Source of the DNA: a virus
Taxonomy: Duplodnaviria > Heunggongvirae > Uroviricota > Caudoviricetes
IMG/VR virus record: IMGVR_UViG_2695420701_000007
Span: 1 to 33,807 of that record
Reading direction: 5' to 3' (one strand)
Length of the DNA stretch: 33,807 bases
Every line of letters begins with the position of its first letter. Position 1 is the stretch's first letter. Both the position numbers and the translations under genes were made by a program. Below the pieces are notes generated by a model, which searched no databases, was not told where the DNA came from, and saw only the letters and a program-made list of their open reading frames with translations. Positions 5,899 through 28,717 of the stretch are shown one piece after another.

Positions 5899-6385
5899 TA
5901 CCCACCTTTAAATGCTCTCGCAATGCCGTTATTGATGGCAATACTCATGTTTTCGAAATAACGGTTGTCCAGCCAGACCGCAGCGGCAATGTCTTCCGGT
6001 GTGTCCTCGCCATCCGGTAGCCAGTGGCGGCGCAATACCAGATATTGCGCGTAGCCGTTGCGCTCAATGCCGGACAGTGCCGCCTTTATTTTTTTACGGT
6101 GATATCCAGATTGACGGCAAAATCTTCATTGAGTTTTGCTGCCATCTGAAGGGCTGCTCCCGGGCGGTGAATGAGCTTCTCCAGTTTCTCTTTGTCTTCC
6201 GGGTGTACGCAGCGCATCAGGTAGTTTTTGGCTGGTGCTACCTTGTTATCCATCGTTATTTCATTCACGAACTTGTTGTAGACAGCTTCGGTCGGGGCGA
6301 AGCGAATATCCTCGCCTGCGACGGTCAGGGTGATGATGGTGGTATTTTCGTCTTTCATGCTATTTTCCCCGGTGAGTGGTGCCAT
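5898..6385 (-). CDS. Frameshifted chaperone fusion (gpE+E' / gpGT analogue) via -1 slip at A_AAA_AAA (6089-6095)
   Basis: The -1 frame after the A7 run stays open for 63 codons (IKAALSGIERNGYAQYLVLRRHWLPDGEDTPEDIAAAVWLDNRYFENMSIAINNGIARAFKGG). It has no start codon of its own near its 5' end. It stops at a TAA (5898-5900) that overlaps the tape-measure ATG. Confidence 0.65.
6086..6385 (-). CDS. Tail assembly chaperone (P2 gpE / lambda gpG analogue, 99 aa)
   Basis: Small ORF immediately upstream of the tape measure. It ends in GTA AAA AAA TAA. Confidence 0.7.
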   Translation of the reverse strand: MAPLTGENSMKDENTTIITLTVAGEDIRFAPTEAVYNKFVNEITMDNKVAPAKNYLMRCVHPEDKEKLEKLIHRPGAALQMAAKLNEDFAVNLDITVKK

Positions 6386-8111: not shown

Positions 8112-9236
8112 TTACTCTCCGCTTTCGTCCAGCATGATGCTGATGGTGATTTCTTTCGGGCAGTTATACGGGCGAACCACGATCGCAATCTGCACTTTGT
8201 CTTTTTCCGGCCATGAGATTTTTACGTCGCCGTCGCGCGGTGACATGCAAAGGCCAGGGAATACCGTGCCGTTGATTTTCAGGCTCTTTGCGCCGTCGCG
8301 CATGGGCTTCGCAAAAAGCTGTTGGTGCGCGGCCACACTTGCCGGGGTGGAGTTCAGTGAGCGATCGGCGATTTTTGGGATAGCCAGCAAACGCACCTGA
8401 CGGGCCATTTCATCGGCAACGCGCAGATATTCGATAGCCTGATAATCGCCACCGTCCACATCGAGCGTGACGCCGTCGGCCCAGTAGTAACCTTCGTAGT
8501 CGGGATACCACGTTGGTACGCTGAAACGCGCCCTGTTCAGGGCCCTGATGGTGGCAGTGTCCAGTTCGCGCTTGTCGCTGTCCTGCGGTTTATCGTTGCG
8601 GCCCATATTGACCAGTGCGCCGGTTGCAACACGGGCGGGGGAATCAGCGATCGTCACTGACGGATTGCAAAGGCGACCGGCCAGTATCCCCGGCTCATTG
8701 CCGAACAGCATCGGGGTAAGCTGCACCGCGTAAGCGGCAATGTCTTTCTGTAGTCCGGTTATGGCGGTGACGTATTCTGACCACTTCTCGCCTGTTCCGC
8801 AGCCGCGAACAGCCAGGATAAACCATGTCCAGCGCTGGAAGGTGTTATTGAGTTCGCTGCGCAGTTGCTGCGCTTTGTTGATATCGTCACCTGAGGCGTT
8901 AGCGCGAACAACGACAACGCCTTCCACCGAGAGGGTGGCCTGTGCATCCATAACCACATCAACCCACGTTCGGGTCCGACCAGAAGGCTGGGGTGTCTGC
9001 ACGGTTGCCAGCCAGATCATGGCATTTTGTCCGGCATTATCCAGAAACGCCTGCACGTTACTGCGCAACAATGAATCCTTTGTTCCTAGCAGCGAGTCAA
9101 GATCGGTTTGTGCTGTAACCGGTGTCGGGAGAATGGCTTTTGTGTGCTCGCCCACCATCAGCAGGGTGCAGGCGATCCCACGCTTGCTTCCGCTGTGGGT
9201 GTTGAGCTGATTAATCGTGACCTGTGGAAACGTCAT
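8112..9236 (-). CDS. Probable contractile tail sheath protein (374 aa)
   Basis: Size and its position in the order sheath-tube-(lysis)-chaperone-tape measure. Assignment is positional. Confidence 0.5.
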   Translation of the reverse strand: MTFPQVTINQLNTHSGSKRGIACTLLMVGEHTKAILPTPVTAQTDLDSLLGTKDSLLRSNVQAFLDNAGQNAMIWLATVQTPQPSGRTRTWVDVVMDAQATLSVEGVVVVRANASGDDINKAQQLRSELNNTFQRWTWFILAVRGCGTGEKWSEYVTAITGLQKDIAAYAVQLTPMLFGNEPGILAGRLCNPSVTIADSPARVATGALVNMGRNDKPQDSDKRELDTATIRALNRARFSVPTWYPDYEGYYWADGVTLDVDGGDYQAIEYLRVADEMARQVRLLAIPKIADRSLNSTPASVAAHQQLFAKPMRDGAKSLKINGTVFPGLCMSPRDGDVKISWPEKDKVQIAIVVRPYNCPKEITISIMLDESGE

Positions 9237-9971: not shown

Positions 9972-10451
9972 TTATTTCCCTGCCCTGATGGTGGATACAG
10001 TGATATTTTCTGCCACCCAGATCTCTGGCTTATCCAGCCGGTAACGGATGCCGCCCATCATGATAAAACCGGCCTCGTCCGGGATCAGAATGATGGGGTC
10101 AGCGAGAGGCATACTGACAGTCACTTCTGCAATGTTGTCGTCCGTGGGTTCGATGTTGACATCCGGCGCATCAAGCTCAAGCTGGCTGTAGTAGTCATTA
10201 GCCTGTTCGTCCCGCCAGACAAGCAGGGCGCATAACAGCAAATCAGGGTCAACCTGACGCCATGGCCAGCGCTGCCAGTCGAACACGGCGTTGTACTGGC
10301 GAATACCCATTCTTATCTGTCCAAGCCCCATGTCTTTCTCAGCGGGCAAAAGACGAATATCACTCATCCACGAATCAAAGCCGGTATTGTCAAACACGGA
10401 AATGTCAAACGCCTGCCGCAGATATGCATAAAGGCTGTCGAACTGGCTCAT
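9972..10451 (-). CDS. Tail completion protein (gpR-like, 159 aa)
   Basis: It follows the gpL-like gene. The segment LLLCALLVWRDEQANDY resembles the P2 gpR segment LLIVPVLAWLRENQPDI (from memory). Confidence 0.4.
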   Translation of the reverse strand: MSQFDSLYAYLRQAFDISVFDNTGFDSWMSDIRLLPAEKDMGLGQIRMGIRQYNAVFDWQRWPWRQVDPDLLLCALLVWRDEQANDYYSQLELDAPDVNIEPTDDNIAEVTVSMPLADPIILIPDEAGFIMMGGIRYRLDKPEIWVAENITVSTIRAGK

Positions 10452-10918
10452 AAGATGTACACCCCCACACGGCCTGCGCCCTGGATAGCACGCAGCACAA
10501 AGGCCGCTTCAGCAAGCAGGGTTTCGCGGGTGTCATTACTGTCGATATTGCTGTCGGCGTGGCGGGTGTTCACCGCCGTAAACTCACCGAGAAGATCGGC
10601 TTTGGCGCGGGCAAAGACCGCTTTTTTGTACTGTGCGCAAAGGGCGCTTTCTCCGTTAAGTTGCGGGCCTTCCACGTCCGCCGCCTGCGCTGTTCCCTGC
10701 ACTACGTAGCGGGATTTCACACCGGTCAGTGCGGTGTTCACCTCAAAGACGGCAGACAATAACGCCTGTTCTGCCAGTGATGCAGGGATATCCAGTGGGA
10801 TAGTTCGGCTTCTGCGAAAATCAGCCATGACCAGATCCGGCCAGAAGCCATCATTTTTAAGCATGCCTGTAGCAGTGTCTGTGTTCTGGTCTGTGCTGTA
10901 GCCTGGTTTCAGGTTCAT
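10448..10918 (-). CDS. Head completion/stabilisation protein (gpL-like, 156 aa)
   Basis: I trimmed track ORF 10448..11119 to the ATG at 10918 (MNLKPGYS…). The longer version would overlap the gpM-like gene by ~100 nt and has a non-protein-like N-terminus. The gene follows gpM as in P2. Confidence 0.55.
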   Translation of the reverse strand: MNLKPGYSTDQNTDTATGMLKNDGFWPDLVMADFRRSRTIPLDIPASLAEQALLSAVFEVNTALTGVKSRYVVQGTAQAADVEGPQLNGESALCAQYKKAVFARAKADLLGEFTAVNTRHADSNIDSNDTRETLLAEAAFVLRAIQGAGRVGVYIL

Positions 10919-19709: not shown

Positions 19710-20137
19710 TGTGAATCTCTCCTGTGTTGTGCCGGTCTGGCGCATGAATGGCGCTGCGGTAAAAAGACCCTTTGCGTCAGTGCGGCCTTGCGATTGACGG
19801 CAGTCAGCGTTCTGGCCAGCGCGACATTGTGTTTGCGGGTCTGCTCTTCGTGGTACTTCTGCATGATTTTCCCGGCCGGCGTGAGTGGTTCCGGCTCTTC
19901 CGGTGAACGGCGCGGACGAACGGCAACTATCCAGCTCTGATATTCACTGCCCGGTCGCCTGTTAAGTATGTCGGTGATGGTGGTTGTGGTGGTGCGATCG
20001 GGGCTGGCCACCGTGATTTCCAGTTCGTCCCCGGGCTGTGGTCTTGTGGCTACGCCTCTCAGTGTCATGGCTGGCGTGCGCTGGCGCATAACGGCGTCGA
20101 ACTGCTGACGCTGCATGGTGCAGTGAAATCGCGTCAT
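19706..20137 (-). CDS. Hypothetical protein (143 aa)
   Basis: The ATG overlaps the gpA-like stop (ATGA). The N-terminus is weakly ASCH-like (…QQFDAVMRQRTPAMTLRG…PGDELEI); this is not secure. Confidence 0.55.
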   Translation of the reverse strand: MTRFHCTMQRQQFDAVMRQRTPAMTLRGVATRPQPGDELEITVASPDRTTTTTITDILNRRPGSEYQSWIVAVRPRRSPEEPEPLTPAGKIMQKYHEEQTRKHNVALARTLTAVNRKAALTQRVFLPQRHSCARPAQHRRDSQ

Positions 20138-22626
20138 GATCTTACCTCCGCTGACGACTCCTGTGTGATGACGATGCGGCGGGTTGTGGCGCTCCAGTAC
20201 GCGATACGCCCGTCGCCCGGGCGAACGCGGGCACCGTTACTCACGGAAATAATGGCTGCGTCAGGCAGCTGCACACCCAGCGCGTCGAGTTCGCGGGTGA
20301 TTTGTGCGATGGTCGTGGTGTCGACAGGCACGACAACCTCCACCCTGACAGGGGTGTCTGATGCTGGTCTGGTGTTATTTTGTCCGGTATCCGTGGCGGG
20401 CGGCTGATTTTTAAGCTGTCTGATGAGCTGTTTCCGCTCGTAATGGCTCAATCCCTGCAACCATTGTGTCAGGCCATTTTCCGGAAGTGTCAGACGTTTC
20501 TCCTGCTGCCTGTTTTCTGTGCCGGTTCCGGCTGTTTTTTCGTCGCCGGGACAGTTATTGCCACGAGTCCAAGGGGCGGCAGGGCCGCCCTGAAGGTCAA
20601 AACCATTTTCGCGGGCGCTGTCTTCCGCTTCCGGTTTACGTCTTACCAGCTTCCAGTTGTCCGGATGCGTGCACACACGGGAGGATTCCCCGATGAGTGG
20701 CGACCAGATCCCGTAAATCTGTACGCTCTGTTCGCCGTAATCGTTCAGCTCATCTGCGAGGTCGTAGGCGGTGCGAATCAGGTAGTCCTTACGTGGAACA
20801 AGTACGCCGCCCTGTTTCTCTATGTAGGTGGCAAAACACCCGGCATCAGCGGCAGCAAGAACCGCATCCATTGCGTCATCCTTCAGCCGTTGCGGGCCTT
20901 CCGGGTTGCGTGCCATCTGGCTGGCAAGGCGGCGCAGTTCACGCCATACCTGACGGGAGGGGATGCCAAAGAACTGGAACTGGCGGACCCGGTGAAGGCG
21001 CGCCCAGCCGATGGCGCGTTCCACGCTTTCTGCCATCGTCTTTCCTGATTCGTCGTCGATGCGCGGTTTGCCTGTTTTCGGGTCAATGCCATCCACGGCG
21101 TGGCTGTCCAGGTTCTTTCCGATGTAGGTGGCGATATAGCTGGTCGGCGTACCTTTCGAACCGTCGACGTACTCCGCCTTAAAGCGCGGAGTTATGTCAT
21201 CGCCCAGCTCGTGGCGGTCTTCACGAATGGCAATATCGCGGGCGATGGTCACGATGCTGTCGATTTCTTCAGGATGTGCAAAGACCATCATATGCCAGTG
21301 CACCGTGCCGTCATGGTGAGGCTCCACCGTGCGGATGCCATACCAGCGCAGGCCCTTGCGGTCCAGTCTGTTACGAACGGCTTTAAAAAAAGTGTTAACC
21401 AGATAATCACTGGAATCGCGCATGGTAGCCCCGTTCCATTTGGGGTTCGGATGACCGTTCTCCGTTGTTGCGTGGTATTTTGACGGGCAGGTGACAGTCA
21501 GAAACACCGCTTTGTCGCCACGGGATTCGGCTATAAGTTCCGCCCCTTTCATGGTGGCCATCATTTCTGCCTTACGGTGAACCGGGTTACTTACTCCCGC
21601 GTAATACACTGTCTCGAGATCAATCGTGAACCCGTCTTCATTTTCCAGCATGAAACTTTTCAGGAAATCGCGTGTTTTCTCGCGCTGTGCGCGAAACTCA
21701 CTTAACGCGTCCTGGCTCAGATAGGGCGATGTTTTTCTGGAAACCAGACAGGCGGCGCGGAGTTGTTCTTCTCTCCACTCGCAACGTAAAAGCCACAGTT
21801 TGCGTTTCCACCAGTCCGCACAGGTCAGGCGAAGGATTGCGCCCGGCAGCAGTTCCGTGTCCGGTTCGTTCTTGCGGTCTTTGTCTGTTGTCAGCGCGTC
21901 ATAATGTGGAGGCATGGCGTGCAGGTGTAGCGCCATGCGGGCCAGCATCTGATACGCCTTCAGTGCCACCTCCATGGTCAGCTCGCCATCTCTGGCACCG
22001 AAACCATCACAGAGTGTTTCAAAGGAGCTGCTGAACATTGCCGCCGTCATGGTGCCCAGCGTCTGTATCTGGTGCTTGTTAAGCTGCGGCAGGTACAGCA
22101 AATCGTCCAGGCGTTCGCGTCCGGCAAGGGCGCGATAACCCGGTGTCAGCCAGCGGCTGTCGGTGCGGTCCAGTCGTTCGAATATTTTGCGCAGGGTTCC
22201 GCGCGCGTAGCCCTCTGATGGTCGACTCTTTTTGCCTTTCTGGCGGTCAGATTCCTGCTTCTTACGTAAAAAAGAGAGGCGGCGGCTCAGAGGTTCACGC
22301 AGATAAACAGGTAGCGCCTTTAGTGTGACAAATGCACGGGCCACCGGGTCTTGTTCTGTTGCCTGGCGCTTGCTGATGATGCTTTGTGTTACCTTCTCGC
22401 GCCGTTCGTCCTCATCGAGGGCGACCATGAGTTTTTTACCCATGTCTGACTGCACAAAAAAGGCTTCTTCTTCCGCCTCCCTGACTTCCTGTGCTTTCAG
22501 ATCTGCTTCCTGGTAGTAGCGTATGGCCTGTTGCAACGGGGTTTCAGGCGTAGGCTGATACTTCGCAAATGTGGCTGGGTCAATGGCCTGCCGTGGTTCG
22601 TTCCAGTCCCAGGTAAATTCACTCAT
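20134..22626 (-). CDS. Replication initiation endonuclease (P2 gpA-like, 830 aa)
   Basis: HUH-type motif (TVEPHHDGTVHWHMMVF). Size and position match P2 gpA. Start set at ATG 22626, which overlaps the upstream stop (ATGA). Confidence 0.85.
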   Translation of the reverse strand: MSEFTWDWNEPRQAIDPATFAKYQPTPETPLQQAIRYYQEADLKAQEVREAEEEAFFVQSDMGKKLMVALDEDERREKVTQSIISKRQATEQDPVARAFVTLKALPVYLREPLSRRLSFLRKKQESDRQKGKKSRPSEGYARGTLRKIFERLDRTDSRWLTPGYRALAGRERLDDLLYLPQLNKHQIQTLGTMTAAMFSSSFETLCDGFGARDGELTMEVALKAYQMLARMALHLHAMPPHYDALTTDKDRKNEPDTELLPGAILRLTCADWWKRKLWLLRCEWREEQLRAACLVSRKTSPYLSQDALSEFRAQREKTRDFLKSFMLENEDGFTIDLETVYYAGVSNPVHRKAEMMATMKGAELIAESRGDKAVFLTVTCPSKYHATTENGHPNPKWNGATMRDSSDYLVNTFFKAVRNRLDRKGLRWYGIRTVEPHHDGTVHWHMMVFAHPEEIDSIVTIARDIAIREDRHELGDDITPRFKAEYVDGSKGTPTSYIATYIGKNLDSHAVDGIDPKTGKPRIDDESGKTMAESVERAIGWARLHRVRQFQFFGIPSRQVWRELRRLASQMARNPEGPQRLKDDAMDAVLAAADAGCFATYIEKQGGVLVPRKDYLIRTAYDLADELNDYGEQSVQIYGIWSPLIGESSRVCTHPDNWKLVRRKPEAEDSARENGFDLQGGPAAPWTRGNNCPGDEKTAGTGTENRQQEKRLTLPENGLTQWLQGLSHYERKQLIRQLKNQPPATDTGQNNTRPASDTPVRVEVVVPVDTTTIAQITRELDALGVQLPDAAIISVSNGARVRPGDGRIAYWSATTRRIVITQESSAEVRS

Positions 22627-23012
22627 GGTTGACACCCTGTCACGCGTTGCCATTCCTGCGAGAAGAGGGCAGAAAGACGGTTAAACTCAGTGGTGTATTC
22701 ACTCAGCGAGGCACACCCGCCAGCGGTGCGATGCGCCAGCATTGCTGCAAACACGGAGGCAGGGGAGTTGTAATACGCCAGCAGGGAGTCGCCGTGTGGT
22801 GTCAGGGTGTACAGGGCCAGACCGTGTGGTGTGAAGTCCACGCGGTAACAGTCGTCCACGATGAAATAAAGGGGGCCTGCGTTCTCTGGTTTTGTGGTGC
22901 GAGCCTGGCTGGCGCGGGCACGGAGATAGAAATCAAACATTGCCTGAAGTTTTGGAGCCAGACGGGTGTCCTGTGTGCGCACCCATTTTACGAAGTCATG
23001 ACGGTCAATCAT
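22623..23012 (-). CDS. Hypothetical protein (129 aa)
   Basis: ORF with GAGG 7 nt upstream of the ATG. Translationally coupled to the gpA-like gene. Confidence 0.6.
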   Translation of the reverse strand: MIDRHDFVKWVRTQDTRLAPKLQAMFDFYLRARASQARTTKPENAGPLYFIVDDCYRVDFTPHGLALYTLTPHGDSLLAYYNSPASVFAAMLAHRTAGGCASLSEYTTEFNRLSALFSQEWQRVTGCQP

Positions 23013-23084
23013 GCTGCACCTCGCTTTGTTAAAGATGTGCGAAGGCCTCCCGCCGCAAGGTGCAGGAAAGGCCCGGAACAGGAA

Positions 23085-23315
23085 TTAATGGAGTTTGTTT
23101 TGCTGCTGGATGAGCTGTTGAAGCTCGTGCAGATCATCCGCCAGATAGCTGAATACAGCGGCGCAGTAGCTGTCTGACAGCGCGTGGCTGCGTTCATGCA
23201 GCATATTGATGTGCATGATTTGCGCGACGCGTGATGCGCGGAAAAGTCTGCGGTTGATTTCAGTCCGGATGTGACGACGCGCAGCGTATGCGCGCTGTTG
23301 TTTGCGGTTTGCCAT
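23085..23315 (-). CDS. Hypothetical small basic/helical protein (76 aa)
   Basis: AGAGG 8 nt upstream of the ATG. The sequence looks helical (…DDLHELQQLIQQQNKLH). Preferred over the overlapping 208-aa ORF. Confidence 0.55.
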   Translation of the reverse strand: MANRKQQRAYAARRHIRTEINRRLFRASRVAQIMHINMLHERSHALSDSYCAAVFSYLADDLHELQQLIQQQNKLH

Positions 23316-23490
23316 GATGTGGCCTCTATGTGTGTAAGTTTTGAAAACTCACCATCCAGAGCTGCGAAACTGTGGGTGGCGAGACGTACGAGGTTCGCAG
23401 TACCGGCAAACATAGAACCCGGCCCGACCGAAGTCGGCCCCGTACGCCCCACCATAATTCGTGTGCGAAAAAGATGTGGCGATACAGTAC

Positions 23491-23618
23491 GCACAAAAAA
23501 ACCGCTGGCGCGGTTGTGCGCTATGTTTGTCAGCGGGCTGCGAAACCCGGCACCCGTTTTATGAGGTGCAGCGGAAATGTAACCTGACTGATTGCGACAT
23601 GGCAAGCGGTTTTTTTGT
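23491..23618. repeat. Perfect 15-bp inverted repeat flanking 98 bp
   Basis: CACAAAAAAACCGCT at 23491-23505 and its exact reverse complement AGCGGTTTTTTTGTG at 23604-23618. Confidence 0.9.
23492..23516 (-). terminator. Intrinsic terminator-like hairpin inside the early operon
   Basis: The minus strand reads AACCGC-GCCA-GCGGTT followed by a T run (7 T in total). Confidence 0.5.
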
Positions 23619-23635
23619 GTGTGCATGATGATCAC

Positions 23636-24190
23636 TCAGTTCGGCAGCAGTTCGTACAACAGGGCGTCGGCGGCGGTCCGGCGGTTGTAGAGGTGAAACG
23701 CCGTATCATCGCTGATGTGCATTTGCATCGTGATGTTGATGTGTTTCGCGATTATGCAGAACGTCATGTTGCGTCTGTCGCGTAGCTCCGTAACCAGCTC
23801 AGCCAGACGATCGCTGTATCTGGTGCAATGGTGGCTCTCGCCGCATTTCTTAAGGCTGTAACCCCGTTTATGCAGTGTGTACCTCACGGTGCACTCGCTG
23901 CGTCCCACCTTCCGGGCCAGTTCCCGTGCGGTTTTTGCGTGACGGTTTTTGGTGAGAAAGGCGATGGCTTCTGCACTCAGCGGTGCTTTTCTCTTGCGAC
24001 CAATCAACCCGCGATTACGTAAAAAAAGAATCCGGTGCATCACTGCGCTGCGGGTTCGCTGAAGTCGTTCAGCCATTTGCCATGTGCTGTGATCCTGATA
24101 AAGCGAGATAAGCAGTTCGTCTTCCTGTTGTGTCCAGGCACTGACGTGCTTCGGTGCTTTACCTGGTCCCCCCATTGGTTTCAGAAACAT
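23636..24190 (-). CDS. Multi-HTH (Myb/SANT-like) DNA-binding protein (184 aa)
   Basis: WTQQEDELLISLYQDHSTWQMAERLQRTRSAVMHRILFLR looks like a Myb/SANT repeat. Two further HTH-like segments follow (AKTARELARKVGRSECTVRYTLHKRG and others). Confidence 0.55.
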   Translation of the reverse strand: MFLKPMGGPGKAPKHVSAWTQQEDELLISLYQDHSTWQMAERLQRTRSAVMHRILFLRNRGLIGRKRKAPLSAEAIAFLTKNRHAKTARELARKVGRSECTVRYTLHKRGYSLKKCGESHHCTRYSDRLAELVTELRDRRNMTFCIIAKHINITMQMHISDDTAFHLYNRRTAADALLYELLPN

Positions 24191-24492
24191 GATTTGGCCT
24201 CCTTACGGCTTTCTGGTGTGGAGATGATCAGATTCAGTTTCAGGGCGGTGGCGTGTTCCTCTTTTGCCCCCGGCGAGTCCTCCCAGCCATCCAGCAGGTA
24301 AATCACATCGGCACAGTGCAGCATGGCGCTCCCGATAAGCATGTAGTCCCTGTATCTCAGCCCGTCAGGGAGTGTTGCGGGGTTGAGTACGGTATGACCC
24401 TGCATCCTCAGGCGGGTCGCCGTCATGGTGAAGGCGGTGCGGTTGAAATCAGGCTTCCCCGTCATGGGGCCAGCGATATAGATAACGGCCAT
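24181..24492 (-). CDS. DUF4406-like (nucleoside 2-deoxyribosyltransferase-like fold) protein (103 aa)
   Basis: MAVIYIAGPMTGKPDFNRTAF…VLNPA…CADVIYLLDGWEDSPGAKEEHATA matches the family pattern from memory. Confidence 0.6.
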   Translation of the reverse strand: MAVIYIAGPMTGKPDFNRTAFTMTATRLRMQGHTVLNPATLPDGLRYRDYMLIGSAMLHCADVIYLLDGWEDSPGAKEEHATALKLNLIISTPESRKEAKSCF

Positions 24493-25451
24493 TACATGAT
24501 CTCCGTGGTGGGGTGTGGAGCGGGAATGTGAGACAGCCAGCCCGCATTGACATCCCGGATCCGGACCTCACGGGCTGGCGGATAAACACCAATCACCTCT
24601 TTTGCCTGCTGGCGTGCACTGCTGCTGGCAGCCACAGCGCGGCGAACGCTCAGGGTGTGCAGCTCAAACGAGGAATAGATCTGCCGGGTTTCGGAGGTGT
24701 CACTGTTGGAGACCACCGGGTGGATACCGTAACGCTGCCAGGCGTTCATCATGAGCGCCGCAAGGTCACGGTGGTCTTTGCGGGTAAATGCCCGGCCGTT
24801 GTAGTGAGTGAACGCCTCTTTACCGTCCGGTGGCAGGTAGGGCGGATCGCAGTAAATGGCGATATCGCCGTGCACCGAAGAAAAACGGCGGATCTCAGCC
24901 GGCATTGTGAAGGCTGTACGGAAATCCGCGTGAATAAAGCGGGTCCGGGTCTCGTTGGCTTTATCAGCAAACAGGCGCATTTCCTGGCAGGGGAAATAAG
25001 GCATGCGGTGTTTGCCGAATGGCACATTGAATTCGCCTTTTTGGTTGGTGCGGTACAGGCCGTTAAAGCAATGGCGGTTCAGGTACAGAAACAGCGCTGC
25101 CCATTCCAGGGATTCGCCGCGTAATCTGTCGGTGGCCAGCGCGATGGTGTTAAATGCCCCGCGATGGCGTTTGTAGGCTTCCGGTGTGCCGCCATCCTTA
25201 AAGAGCGACCATGCACGATCCATTAATTCCGTGGTGTTGGTCGTCAGTTGCTGGTAGAAATTAATCAGCGCGGGGTTGCTGTCACACAATACGTAATAGT
25301 CATAATCCGTGTTCATGAAGACCGAGCCGCCGCCCACGAAGGGTTCGATCAGGCAGGCGGCTTTGGGTAAATATTCGCGCAGCTGCGGCATGATACTGAA
25401 TTTGCCGCCCGCCCATTTGAGCGGTGAGCGCTGGTTCAGAATACCTTTCAT
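24492..25451 (-). CDS. DNA adenine methyltransferase (Dam-like, 319 aa)
   Basis: Motifs PLKWAGGK, EPFVGGGSVF (SAM binding) and CDPPY (catalytic). Confidence 0.9.
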   Translation of the reverse strand: MKGILNQRSPLKWAGGKFSIMPQLREYLPKAACLIEPFVGGGSVFMNTDYDYYVLCDSNPALINFYQQLTTNTTELMDRAWSLFKDGGTPEAYKRHRGAFNTIALATDRLRGESLEWAALFLYLNRHCFNGLYRTNQKGEFNVPFGKHRMPYFPCQEMRLFADKANETRTRFIHADFRTAFTMPAEIRRFSSVHGDIAIYCDPPYLPPDGKEAFTHYNGRAFTRKDHRDLAALMMNAWQRYGIHPVVSNSDTSETRQIYSSFELHTLSVRRAVAASSSARQQAKEVIGVYPPAREVRIRDVNAGWLSHIPAPHPTTEIM

Positions 25452-28281: not shown

Positions 28282-28310
28282 ACTTTAGGGAACAAAACTT
28301 CCTATGTCAA
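28282..28310 (-). promoter_or_regulatory. Early lytic promoter (near-consensus)
   Basis: On the minus strand: TTGACA (28310-28305), exactly 17 nt of spacer, then TAAAGT (28287-28282). The -35 overlaps the repressor ATG (28304-28306). Confidence 0.6.
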
Positions 28311-28717
28311 CAGAAAAAGAGGAACTAAGCGTCATTATTGGCCGTCGATTACGGGAGGAGCGAGAGAAAATTGGCATGACCCAAGATGATATGGCGTCGA
28401 TTTTTGAAGTTTCTACAAAGACTTGGGGGAAGTATGAAAGAGGGGTGACTACACCGGATGCAGTTATGTTGAATCTCTTGGGAGGGCGCTGCGGAGTAGA
28501 TGTCTATTACATACTTTCTGGTAGTCGTGCACATGGCATCCCTAATGCTACTGAAGATGAGATTGAGCTAATTAAAATATATCGTTCTGCACCTTTGGCT
28601 GTTAAGGCGGCAGCTTTGGCAGCCTTGACTGCTGGTAGTTTGTCTCTAGGTACAATAAGAGCTTCTGGCAAAGGCCATCGTATTGCAGGTCGTGACTATA
28701 ACGAAACGAAGGGTTAG
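28304..28717 (+). CDS. CI-like immunity repressor (XRE HTH, 137 aa)
   Basis: HTH segment (IGRRLREEREKIGMTQDDMASIFEVSTKTWGKYERGVTTPDAVMLNLL). Divergent from the early operon and reads toward int, as P2 C does. Confidence 0.75.
   Translation: MSTEKEELSVIIGRRLREEREKIGMTQDDMASIFEVSTKTWGKYERGVTTPDAVMLNLLGGRCGVDVYYILSGSRAHGIPNATEDEIELIKIYRSAPLAVKAAALAALTAGSLSLGTIRASGKGHRIAGRDYNETKG

Follow-up and report, generated by a model that had tools for sequence, protein, structure and literature searches.

RNA family searches, fold predictions and the comparison of relatives together lead us to conclude that a 320-bp island in the early operon of a P88-like (Xuanwuvirus, Peduoviridae) P2-type prophage is probably an antisense-RNA immunity cassette of the type known from phages P4 and P1. 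The window, that is, the whole stretch of 33,807 nt analysed here (IMG/VR record IMGVR_UViG_2695420701_000007), was assigned to this prophage type by comparison with phage records; all coordinates below are positions in it, and the features of the island lie on its minus strand, that of the operon. An integrase and a helix–turn–helix (HTH) repressor are encoded on the plus strand, and the early operon runs divergently on the minus strand in the order Dam, DUF4406, HTH gene, island, 76-aa gene, 129-aa open reading frame (ORF) and gpA, the island extending from the stop of the 184-aa HTH gene (23636) to the ATG of the 76-aa gene (23315). The degree of confidence just stated is a composite one. 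We regard the identity of the two RNAs of the island, IsrK and C4, and the logic by which their a and b recognition sites pair, as close to certain, and we hold the mechanistic steps, from termination of transcripts from an internal promoter to the escape of others along a translated through-frame, with moderate confidence. The reading is carried by the matches of the two RNAs to their families, by complementarities that covary among relatives, by a target site lying over the Shine–Dalgarno sequence of the 76-aa gene, by the homology of that gene to P4 epsilon and by the conserved through-frame, all of which can be read directly from the sequence.

IsrK, C4 and the sites that pair them

The island holds full-length matches to two Rfam families. 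An IsrK, or seqA-type, leader small RNA (sRNA; RF01394) occupies 23495..23569 with 69.0 bits (gathering score 50; model positions 1-77 of 77; E 6e-13), and the minimum free energy (MFE) fold of 23569..23493 consists of the three IsrK hairpins, the last of which is an intrinsic terminator. Behind it, at 23372..23459, lies a C4, or CI-type, antisense RNA (RF01695) with 81.8 bits (gathering score 45; model positions 1-87 of 87; E 9e-15), composed of a closing stem, a hairpin capped by UUCG, a second hairpin whose loop is the recognition segment a' and a single-stranded recognition segment b'. The closing stem is tRNA-like and its 3' side reads ...GCCACCCA; RNAs of this family are matured from a longer transcript by RNase P, which may hold here as well. 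With these E-values, which refer to the whole window, and fold z-scores against shuffled sequences of -3.4 (23640..23486) and -5.0 (23569..23300), the structure of the island lies beyond chance. The window contains no tRNA or tmRNA gene according to a scan for both. The c4-a1b1 model (RF03163) reaches 22.9 bits over the IsrK region, below its gathering score of 46.7, and the IsrK model describes this region better; P4 itself scores 44.1 bits against c4-a1b1, also just under the gathering score.

These matches bear directly on a first-pass annotation of the window, made from the letters alone, which had proposed that the island carries a regulatory RNA gating the downstream genes, a proposal that our results support. 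All five structural elements that it had listed are present on the minus strand, with its coordinates systematically about 1 nt low, and the Rfam scan including C4-type models that it had named as a check was positive for both RNAs. Its discrete sRNA ending at the terminator is IsrK, which measures about 75 nt from the start at a promoter-like site of its own and not the ~125 nt proposed; C4 escaped it as a second RNA gene.

The promoter-like site, of sigma-70 type, reads TTGCCA-18-TACATT at 23576..23605, with a predicted start at about 23569, and is the positional equivalent of P_LE in P4. It was the sole match of a promoter scan over 22900-24300 (1.4 kb) and is unchanged across the P88-like relatives. 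At the same place relative to IsrK, P4 has TTGCCT, a 17-nt spacer and TATAGT, and the lambdoid Stx2 phage L002 has TTGATT, a 17-nt spacer and TACACT, the latter two having been read by eye and not promoter-scanned. From this we infer promoter activity for the internal site. At the other end of IsrK, a terminator scan returned a 6-bp stem with a 4-nt loop (stem 23515..23510 / 23505..23500, loop GCCA, T7 at 23501..23495). This is the terminator-like hairpin AACCGC-GCCA-GCGGTT with its run of seven T residues that had been noticed at first pass, now placed at 23515..23495; the hairpin alone is worth -9.0 kcal/mol and was graded weak.

The two recognition segments of C4 each find one partner in IsrK and another in the leader of the 76-aa gene. 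Segment a' (UCUAUGUUUG, 23407..23416), the loop of the second C4 hairpin, is complementary in 9/9 nt to a1 (23521..23529) in the linker of IsrK and in 9/10 to a2 (23325..23334), which overlaps the AGAGG Shine–Dalgarno sequence (23327..23323) of the 76-aa gene. Segment b' (CUGCGAACCUCG, 23389..23400) is complementary to b1 (23538..23549), in the loop of IsrK hairpin 2, and to b2 (23362..23371), just 3' of C4; b2 together with a2 forms the equivalent of P4 seqC. All four complementarities were recovered by a repeat search, and in the rest of the window there are no exact copies of the 10-mer contained in b1 or of the other a and b sites, the matches with one mismatch being at chance level.

Three of the elements listed at first pass thereby acquire a place in the cassette. 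The C(UUCG)G hairpin, confirmed at about 23439..23421, is the first internal hairpin of C4. The complementarity of CTGCGAA and TTCGCAG is real (23391-23400 versus 23362-23371), but what had been taken for a local stem is the antisense pairing of b' with b2, which covaries. Likewise the 10-mer GTTTCGCAGC does occur in two exact copies (23370..23361 and 23546..23537), but these belong to b2 and b1 and covary with b', so that they are not elements of local structure. In the predicted fold of the precursor, a1 and b1 of IsrK pair in cis with a' and b', an arrangement that resembles the inactive 'structure A' of Gifsy-1.

The strongest evidence for this pairing logic comes from relatives. A first alignment of the window with seven P88-like phages was extended through a scan of viral contigs to 78 distinct core sequences; a search of genome contigs with the 76-aa protein yielded 2 close loci only and was of little use for covariation. 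The pair of IsrK and C4 was present in 6/6 relatives tested. Throughout the 78 distinct P88-like sequences the promoter, IsrK hairpin 1, the terminator, the C4 stems and the spacer to the ATG form a near-invariant backbone, and six short hypervariable segments, a1/a'/a2 and b1/b'/b2, change in concert. The set comprises 15 a' variants (14-15 loop variants) and 9 b' variants (6 core types) in 24 combinations; each a' loop variant is accompanied by its matching a1 and a2, the b' types are matched by b1 and b2, and the a and b types reassort independently. Mean duplex energies for a1, a2, b1 and b2 are -12.8, -15.4, -16.0 and -10.3 kcal/mol when each site is paired with its own type, as against -5.9, -7.4, -9.2 and -5.8 kcal/mol with other types. 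That the sites covary three ways argues strongly for pairing of C4 with IsrK as well as with the leader of the 76-aa gene, and the pattern of variation points to diversifying selection on recognition specificity, which one would expect of an immunity determinant.

Two loci of the set stand apart. In L112 (C4 at 10351-10438, IsrK at 10474-10548) the a and b types of the IsrK half mismatch the locus's own C4 and mRNA sites, and the 5' half of the terminator is damaged (AACCGC to AGGCGC); in L010, b1 is off-type, 2 nt away from the type that its own b' requires. Both look like recombinant or decaying cassettes.

A comparable repertoire is found in P4-like satellites, where 80 loci (L129-L208) with an epsilon 97-99% identical to that of P4 display 8 a' loops and 4 b' types in 13 combinations. 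No a' or b' type is common to the P88-like phages and the P4-like satellites in the two sampled sets, and direct cross-immunity of helper and satellite through shared types was rejected on this ground. The P88-like b' segments UGUGGAAACC and GUUGAGAACC are fully or nearly complementary to the b' segments AUUUCCACCC and AUUCUCACCC of P4-like satellites and of a lambdoid phage (L002 3107-3194), and among 18 pairings of types, with ~4 variable bases, there is one exact complement between a P88 and a P4-like b' type. Such an opposite-polarity kissing pair in two lineages, through which the CI RNA of a satellite might in principle bind the C4 of a helper, is compatible with chance.

A through-frame and the genes behind the island

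The island is crossed by an open frame of 208 aa (23009..23635, 'ORF208', Eta/Ash-like), which takes in the promoter-like site, IsrK and C4 and then, in another register, the epsilon-like 76-aa gene. Its 5' end abuts the stop of the upstream 184-aa gene (TGA|GTG), an in-frame ATG follows at 23626, and its 3' end overlaps the 129-aa gene by ATGA. Relative to an AUG at the 5' end of C4, this frame keeps the same register as the eta frame of P4 (8821..8168) and the lambdoid through-ORF. Among P88-like loci the frame was open from stop to stop in 8/8 of those first examined and fully intact in 76/85 distinct longer sequences; the three unrelated upstream contexts of the first alignment each place an ATG in frame directly before the A tract, and the sole length variant of the island, besides slips of the T run, is one of +3 nt.

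Counts of stop codons point in the same direction. Over the 78 core sequences the island contains 3 stops in the through-frame (two of them from T-run frameshifts) versus 136 and 223 in the other frames, and 79 distinct variants of the hypervariable sites contain 0 versus 30 and 15. We estimated stop avoidance on the actual sequence backgrounds, stratified by codon position and by transition or transversion, after removal of the unrelated chance locus L126. In the overlap with the epsilon-like gene, 9.7 stop-creating substitutions were expected in the through-frame and 0 observed (P = 6e-5), compared with 10.8 expected and 11 observed in the control frame and 6.7 expected and 1 observed in the epsilon frame itself. 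The description of the island as simply non-coding must be amended in this respect, as must that of the 208-aa frame as one of low quality: the frame is conserved open in relatives, avoids stops and appears to be a selected Eta/Ash-like through-frame in the same frame as P4 eta.

Could the protein then be what is conserved, with the RNA matches secondary to it? A gene for an 'Ash family' protein or 'transcriptional regulator' would account for the open frame in nearly all relatives and for stop avoidance, and is in keeping with a borderline match to Pfam Phage_ASH, with matches to PHROG families called 'transcriptional regulator' and with the coding sequences that phage records annotate at the island. 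Yet the variable sites of the island are spread evenly over codon positions (20/23/23), without bias, as against the third-position excess of 28/28/57 in the epsilon-like gene, and the hypervariable sites alter amino acids freely while keeping their three-way RNA complementarity. The covariance-model scores, moreover, include structure and lie far above gathering, BLASTP finds no similarity to P4 Eta, and in P4 a 'cI protein' once read into this region has been replaced by CI RNA (PMC10111431, PMC3632133). We consider a purely protein-coding island very improbable. The data fit selection for translation through the region and not for a folded protein, a reading that agrees with the cassette.

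In the register of the through-frame, the A tract (23610-23617) reads A_AAA_AAC, a canonical -1 slippery heptamer, from which a slip would lead to a stop ~17 codons later. Programmed frameshifting at A_AAA_AAC was set aside, the heptamer not being conserved in 5 loci, which carry an A5 variant. The T tract of the terminator (23495-23501) reads U_UUU_UUG in the same register.

The proximal gene under the presumed control of the cassette is the 76-aa gene (23085..23315), a homolog of the P4 epsilon derepression, or anti-repressor, protein. Its product matches Pfam PF25738 'Derepression' with 31.2 bits (gathering score 27), P4 epsilon itself scoring 170 bits, and aligns with P4 epsilon at 30% identity over 66 aa (BLASTP, E 2e-8). 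Next come the 129-aa ORF (22623..23012; PHROG 3237, function unknown), for which no homology to P4 orf151 was found, and the gpA replication endonuclease (20134..22653; Pfam Phage_GPA, E 9e-128), all three on the minus strand. A derepression protein 88% identical to that of the window is encoded in a P88-like segment of a record titled Vagococcus sp. WN89Y (NZ_JBQPOM010000071.1, our L004); Vagococcus being a Gram-positive genus, this enterobacterial segment is probably a contamination or a mislabelled assembly.

The inverted repeat at the terminator

The first-pass annotation had further found a perfect 15-nt inverted repeat, with CACAAAAAAACCGCT at 23619..23605 and its complement at 23506..23492, which we confirm and extend. 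The upstream arm (23602..23622) is complementary to 23509..23489, that is, to the 3' half of the IsrK terminator, its U tract and 6 further nt, with 15/15 pairs in the core and 19/21 (90%) over the arms 23602-23622 and 23489-23509. The 15-mer occurs exactly twice in the window, versus 0.14 occurrences expected at <=2 mismatches, and the long-range helix alone is worth -27.4 kcal/mol as against -9.0 for the terminator hairpin. Located at about -34..-54 from the predicted start of IsrK, the arm extends over the -35 hexamer and an A tract that might serve as an UP element, corresponds to codons 2-8 of the through-frame counted from its ATG and is unchanged from AAAAACCGCTTGCCA onward in relatives. 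It is absent from the P4, lambdoid, N15, Klebsiella and Yersinia phage homologs, which keep the 3' half of the terminator. Divergent homologs gave no information on covariation of the repeat, as every match in a phage that is not P88-like begins 3' of the arm.

It had been proposed at first pass that the two copies of the repeat form a switch between terminator and anti-terminator. As an attenuator, the arm CACAAAAAAACCGCU (23619..23605) in transcripts of the operon would pair with 23506..23492 and exclude the terminator, and transcripts from the internal promoter, which lack the arm, would terminate. The complementarity is indeed far beyond chance, and the position of the arm just 5' of the internal -35 hexamer, so that it is carried by operon-derived transcripts only, would make functional sense; the arm is also conserved at the module's 5' edge, whichever of three unrelated sequences lies upstream. 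In the equilibrium fold the long-range helix is preferred, with an MFE of -51.9 kcal/mol for the read-through RNA versus -44.8 kcal/mol with the terminator enforced, but this preference should not extend to the moment of decision, when the A7:U7 tract is still within the transcription complex. The U tract remains in the RNA:DNA hybrid when a terminator hairpin forms. Of the 15 pairs of the arm, 7 require the U tract, and to the 3' half of the stem the arm offers the same CCGC as the 5' strand of the hairpin itself. One would thus expect the local hairpin to prevail on kinetic grounds.

Comparison among relatives also speaks against the attenuator. Stem and arm are invariant and show no covariation or compensatory change, and the variants that do occur go without compensation: an A5 arm stands beside an unchanged T7 in five loci, and L093 (T6) and L104 (T5) keep an A7 arm. 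The arm is specific to the P88-like lineage, being missing from P4, lambdoid, N15 and other homologs with the same terminator 3' half. On translated operon transcripts it would be covered by ribosomes, and its A tract fits the proximal position of an UP element at about -47..-41. We therefore consider an attenuator built on the repeat quite unlikely.

The same arm could instead act after transcription or at the level of DNA. As a 21-bp duplex it might form an RNase III-type site or a clamp that excises the IsrK segment and separates the upstream cistrons from the C4–epsilon–A block; alternatively, it could be a relic of recombination, or an UP element that happens to mirror the terminator. With 19/21 pairs and -27.4 kcal/mol, the helix is within the range of RNase III substrates in length and quality. 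The homology between phages with different upstream genes breaks exactly at the arm, as a junction relic would predict, and the A tract occupies the proximal UP-element position of the predicted promoter. Natural length variants, however, speak against a strict requirement for a duplex, and an UP element or a junction relic would leave 8 matching non-A/T flanking bases unexplained. Each of these readings is unlikely in our judgement, even taken as a group. The complementarity is too good for chance, and its possible roles include a duplex (RNase III site or clamp), a junction relic and a minor back-up anti-terminator.

A regulatory model and its relation to known systems

By homology with P4, P1 and Gifsy-1, we suggest the following mechanism for the cassette. 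The internal promoter would be active in the lysogen, with most transcripts ending at the weak IsrK terminator and the read-through fraction being processed to stable C4 RNA. Through a' and b', C4 would pair with a2 and b2 and so block translation of the epsilon-like gene and, via polarity or premature termination, the 129-aa/gpA block as well, and would do so in the resident prophage no less than in a superinfecting phage whose a/b type is the same. The a1 and b1 sites of IsrK would act as competing partners of C4, in cis while they belong to the precursor and in trans when carried by the short sRNA, and thereby set a threshold. Transcripts from the C-repressed early promoter, by contrast, would arrive translated, the through-frame being coupled to the upstream gene, and ribosomes would cross the terminator and the target sites into the A block. 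This escape of early transcripts would be like the overriding of CI-dependent termination by eta translation in P4, where, in the account of Forti et al. (1999) relayed in PMC10111431, translation of eta from the upstream promoter prevents such termination.

A number of observations weigh against this reading or parts of it. Promoter function, processing, repression and polarity on gene A are transferred by homology. The a2 site of the window pairs worse than a1 (one mismatch; -10.4 vs -11.0 kcal/mol) and is the weakest a2 of all types. Within the island proper, stop avoidance is not significant alone (3.9 expected, 1 observed, P = 0.1). The through-frame product falls just short of the gathering score of Pfam Phage_ASH (PF10554; 25.8 bits vs 26), which P4 eta and the lambdoid through-ORF exceed with 82.4 and 38.9 bits; its link to P4 Eta rests on register and on the Pfam profile because BLASTP found no similarity. 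Here, but not in P4, the epsilon-like gene sits inside the through-frame in another register. IsrK could act in either sense, the RNA being an activator in Gifsy-1 and seqA being needed to establish immunity in P4. Finally, a lytic P2-like phage must express gene A, so that a lasting block by its own C4 can be only part of the account.

A rival possibility is that the cassette is a positive switch of the Gifsy-1 type, which would serve mainly to trigger induction: under inducing conditions short IsrK would accumulate and titrate C4 or remodel the read-through mRNA, and the epsilon-like anti-repressor would then inactivate the prophage repressor. The regulated gene is indeed the homolog of an anti-repressor, and a1 and b1 of IsrK are matches to C4 at least as good as the sites in the mRNA. 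To our knowledge, classical P2 is unlike P88 in its recovery after mitomycin C. P88 was recovered after mitomycin C treatment of a lysogen (PMC5285337), and in Gifsy-1 itself the short IsrK activates the anti-repressor by working in trans on the read-through form of its own mRNA, raising orf45-anrP translation >100-fold, and deletion of the isrK promoter abolishes spontaneous induction (PMC4825925). Against this stand the position of the cassette within a C-repressed early operon just 5' of gene A, which is also the place of the immunity-enforcing system in P4, and the hypervariable, reassorting a/b types, which are the mark of diversifying immunity specificity and would be needless for a purely internal switch. 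We regard the positive switch as possible but not expected; nor is it exclusive of immunity, and a net role as immunity, as in P4 and P1, is compatible with one as induction trigger, as in Gifsy-1.

Among known systems, P4 is closest to the immunity cassette proposed here. The Rfam C4 and isrK profiles detect its CI and seqA (PMC10111431), and in our searches of NC_001609 they matched 8507..8420 (74.9 bits; CI RNA) and 8692..8615 (60.8 bits; seqA region), followed downstream of C4 by epsilon, two ORFs and the alpha replication gene. P4 and the island thus share the two RNA families in the same order and on the same strand, a promoter at the same place, a terminator after seqA/IsrK, target sites on both sides of the antisense RNA, an open frame across the region in the same register, a homologous derepression protein followed by a replication gene, and recognition loops that are hypervariable among close relatives. 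In contrast to P4, a satellite whose RNA is the sole immunity factor, the host here is a complete P2-like helper-type phage with a protein repressor, and its replication gene encodes gpA, a rolling-circle endonuclease, instead of the alpha primase. The epsilon homolog begins 57 nt after C4, out of frame inside the through-frame, whereas in P4 eta ends before epsilon begins; P4 has no counterpart of the 21-nt arm that is complementary to the terminator, and no a'/b' type is shared in the sampled populations.

The immI regions of P1 and P7, which carry an RNA of the same C4 family in Rfam, provide the second comparison. In these phages c4 has two recognition segments, a' and b', whose targets a1/b1 upstream and a2/b2 downstream control icd-ant. 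The downstream target covers the ribosome-binding site, the product is an anti-repressor, and heteroimmunity arises through changes of the a and b sequences. Recognition by two segments, a duplicated target with its downstream copy at the ribosome-binding site and an anti-repressor product are therefore likenesses to the island. The anti-repressor here, however, is small and of P4 epsilon type, not Ant, and the upstream a1/b1 part is a terminated IsrK-type sRNA, which the c4-a1b1 model describes poorly (22.9 bits against 46.7).

With Gifsy-1 and its relatives, the lambdoid Stx2 phages, mEp460 and ST64B, the island shares the IsrK family and, by prediction, a read-through fraction and a processed RNA at the position of C4, which in Gifsy-1 is STnc1160, downstream of IsrK (PMC4825925), as well as a nested AUG at the 5' end of C4 and a downstream anti-repressor gene (PMC4825925). 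The Stx2 phage L002 has both RNAs, with a matched a/b set of its own, 5' of the Rha anti-repressor. In these phages the anti-repressor differs in being of Rha/AnrP type and in frame with the through-ORF, no replication gene lies behind it, and there is no upstream arm complementary to the terminator. An IS inserted in the Stx2a phage locus of L002 carries an ALIL pseudoknot, the frameshift element of the IS3 family (5939-6055, minus strand, 121.5 bits).

Around the cassette the early region is mosaic. Cassette, epsilon-like gene, 129-aa ORF and gpA travel together as one conserved block, and the neighbour 5' of the cassette varies three ways in relatives, being an HTH gene, an ead/Ea22-like gene or a lipoprotein/protease gene with a hairpin. 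Farther upstream in the operon of the window (24181-25451 region, minus strand) are a 319-aa gene, called Dam in the first-pass annotation, and a gene for a DUF4406 protein, related to nucleoside 2-deoxyribosyltransferases; both are accessory genes of possible anti-restriction or anti-defence interest. The repressor of the window (28304-28717, plus strand) is a 137-aa HTH_3/HTH_19 protein, and its P88 counterpart (L001 193-474) a 93-aa protein of P2 C type. Past the tyrP-like and yecA-like host genes, at the right-hand limit of the window, a match to RNA-OUT, the antisense RNA of IS10 (RF00240; 33757-33807, minus strand; 60.6 bits), cut by the window end, points to an IS10/Tn10 end.

The island is widespread, occurring in 1283/5426 complete E. 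coli genomes (for example NC_017633 2136051-2136360). The E. coli records listed have no annotated feature under it, GenBank phage records (including L006-L008) label the through-frame 'transcriptional regulator' or 'ash family protein', the P88 record annotates a spurious ORF on the opposite strand at the island, and we found no description of the cassette in P2-like Xuanwuvirus phages in the literature. Naming the island correctly mends a widespread gap in annotation and turns an anomaly of the operon into a recognisable, testable module. No new principle is found in it: the RNAs, the pairing logic, the switching of specificity and the translational override are already established in P1/P7, P4 and Gifsy-1, and what is distinctive here is the helper-type host, the epsilon homolog nested out of frame, the arm complementary to the terminator and the large a/b repertoire. 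As a speculation that we hold to be rather doubtful, the cassette might sort transcripts by promoter, such that early-operon RNAs, which alone carry the start of the through-frame and the 21-nt arm, would be exempt, through coupled translation and/or long-range pairing or processing, from an RNA immunity that halts transcripts of the internal promoter, and the 20-plus a/b 'barcodes' would constitute a second, RNA-based layer of immunity in helper-type phages, parallel to, and possibly interacting with, that of P4-like satellites. That a P2-like helper carries the same RNA immunity logic and an epsilon homolog as its satellite P4 bears on the exchange of control modules between helpers and satellites, and the numerous, independently reassorting a/b types provide a natural set of variants with which RNA-based heteroimmunity may be tested.

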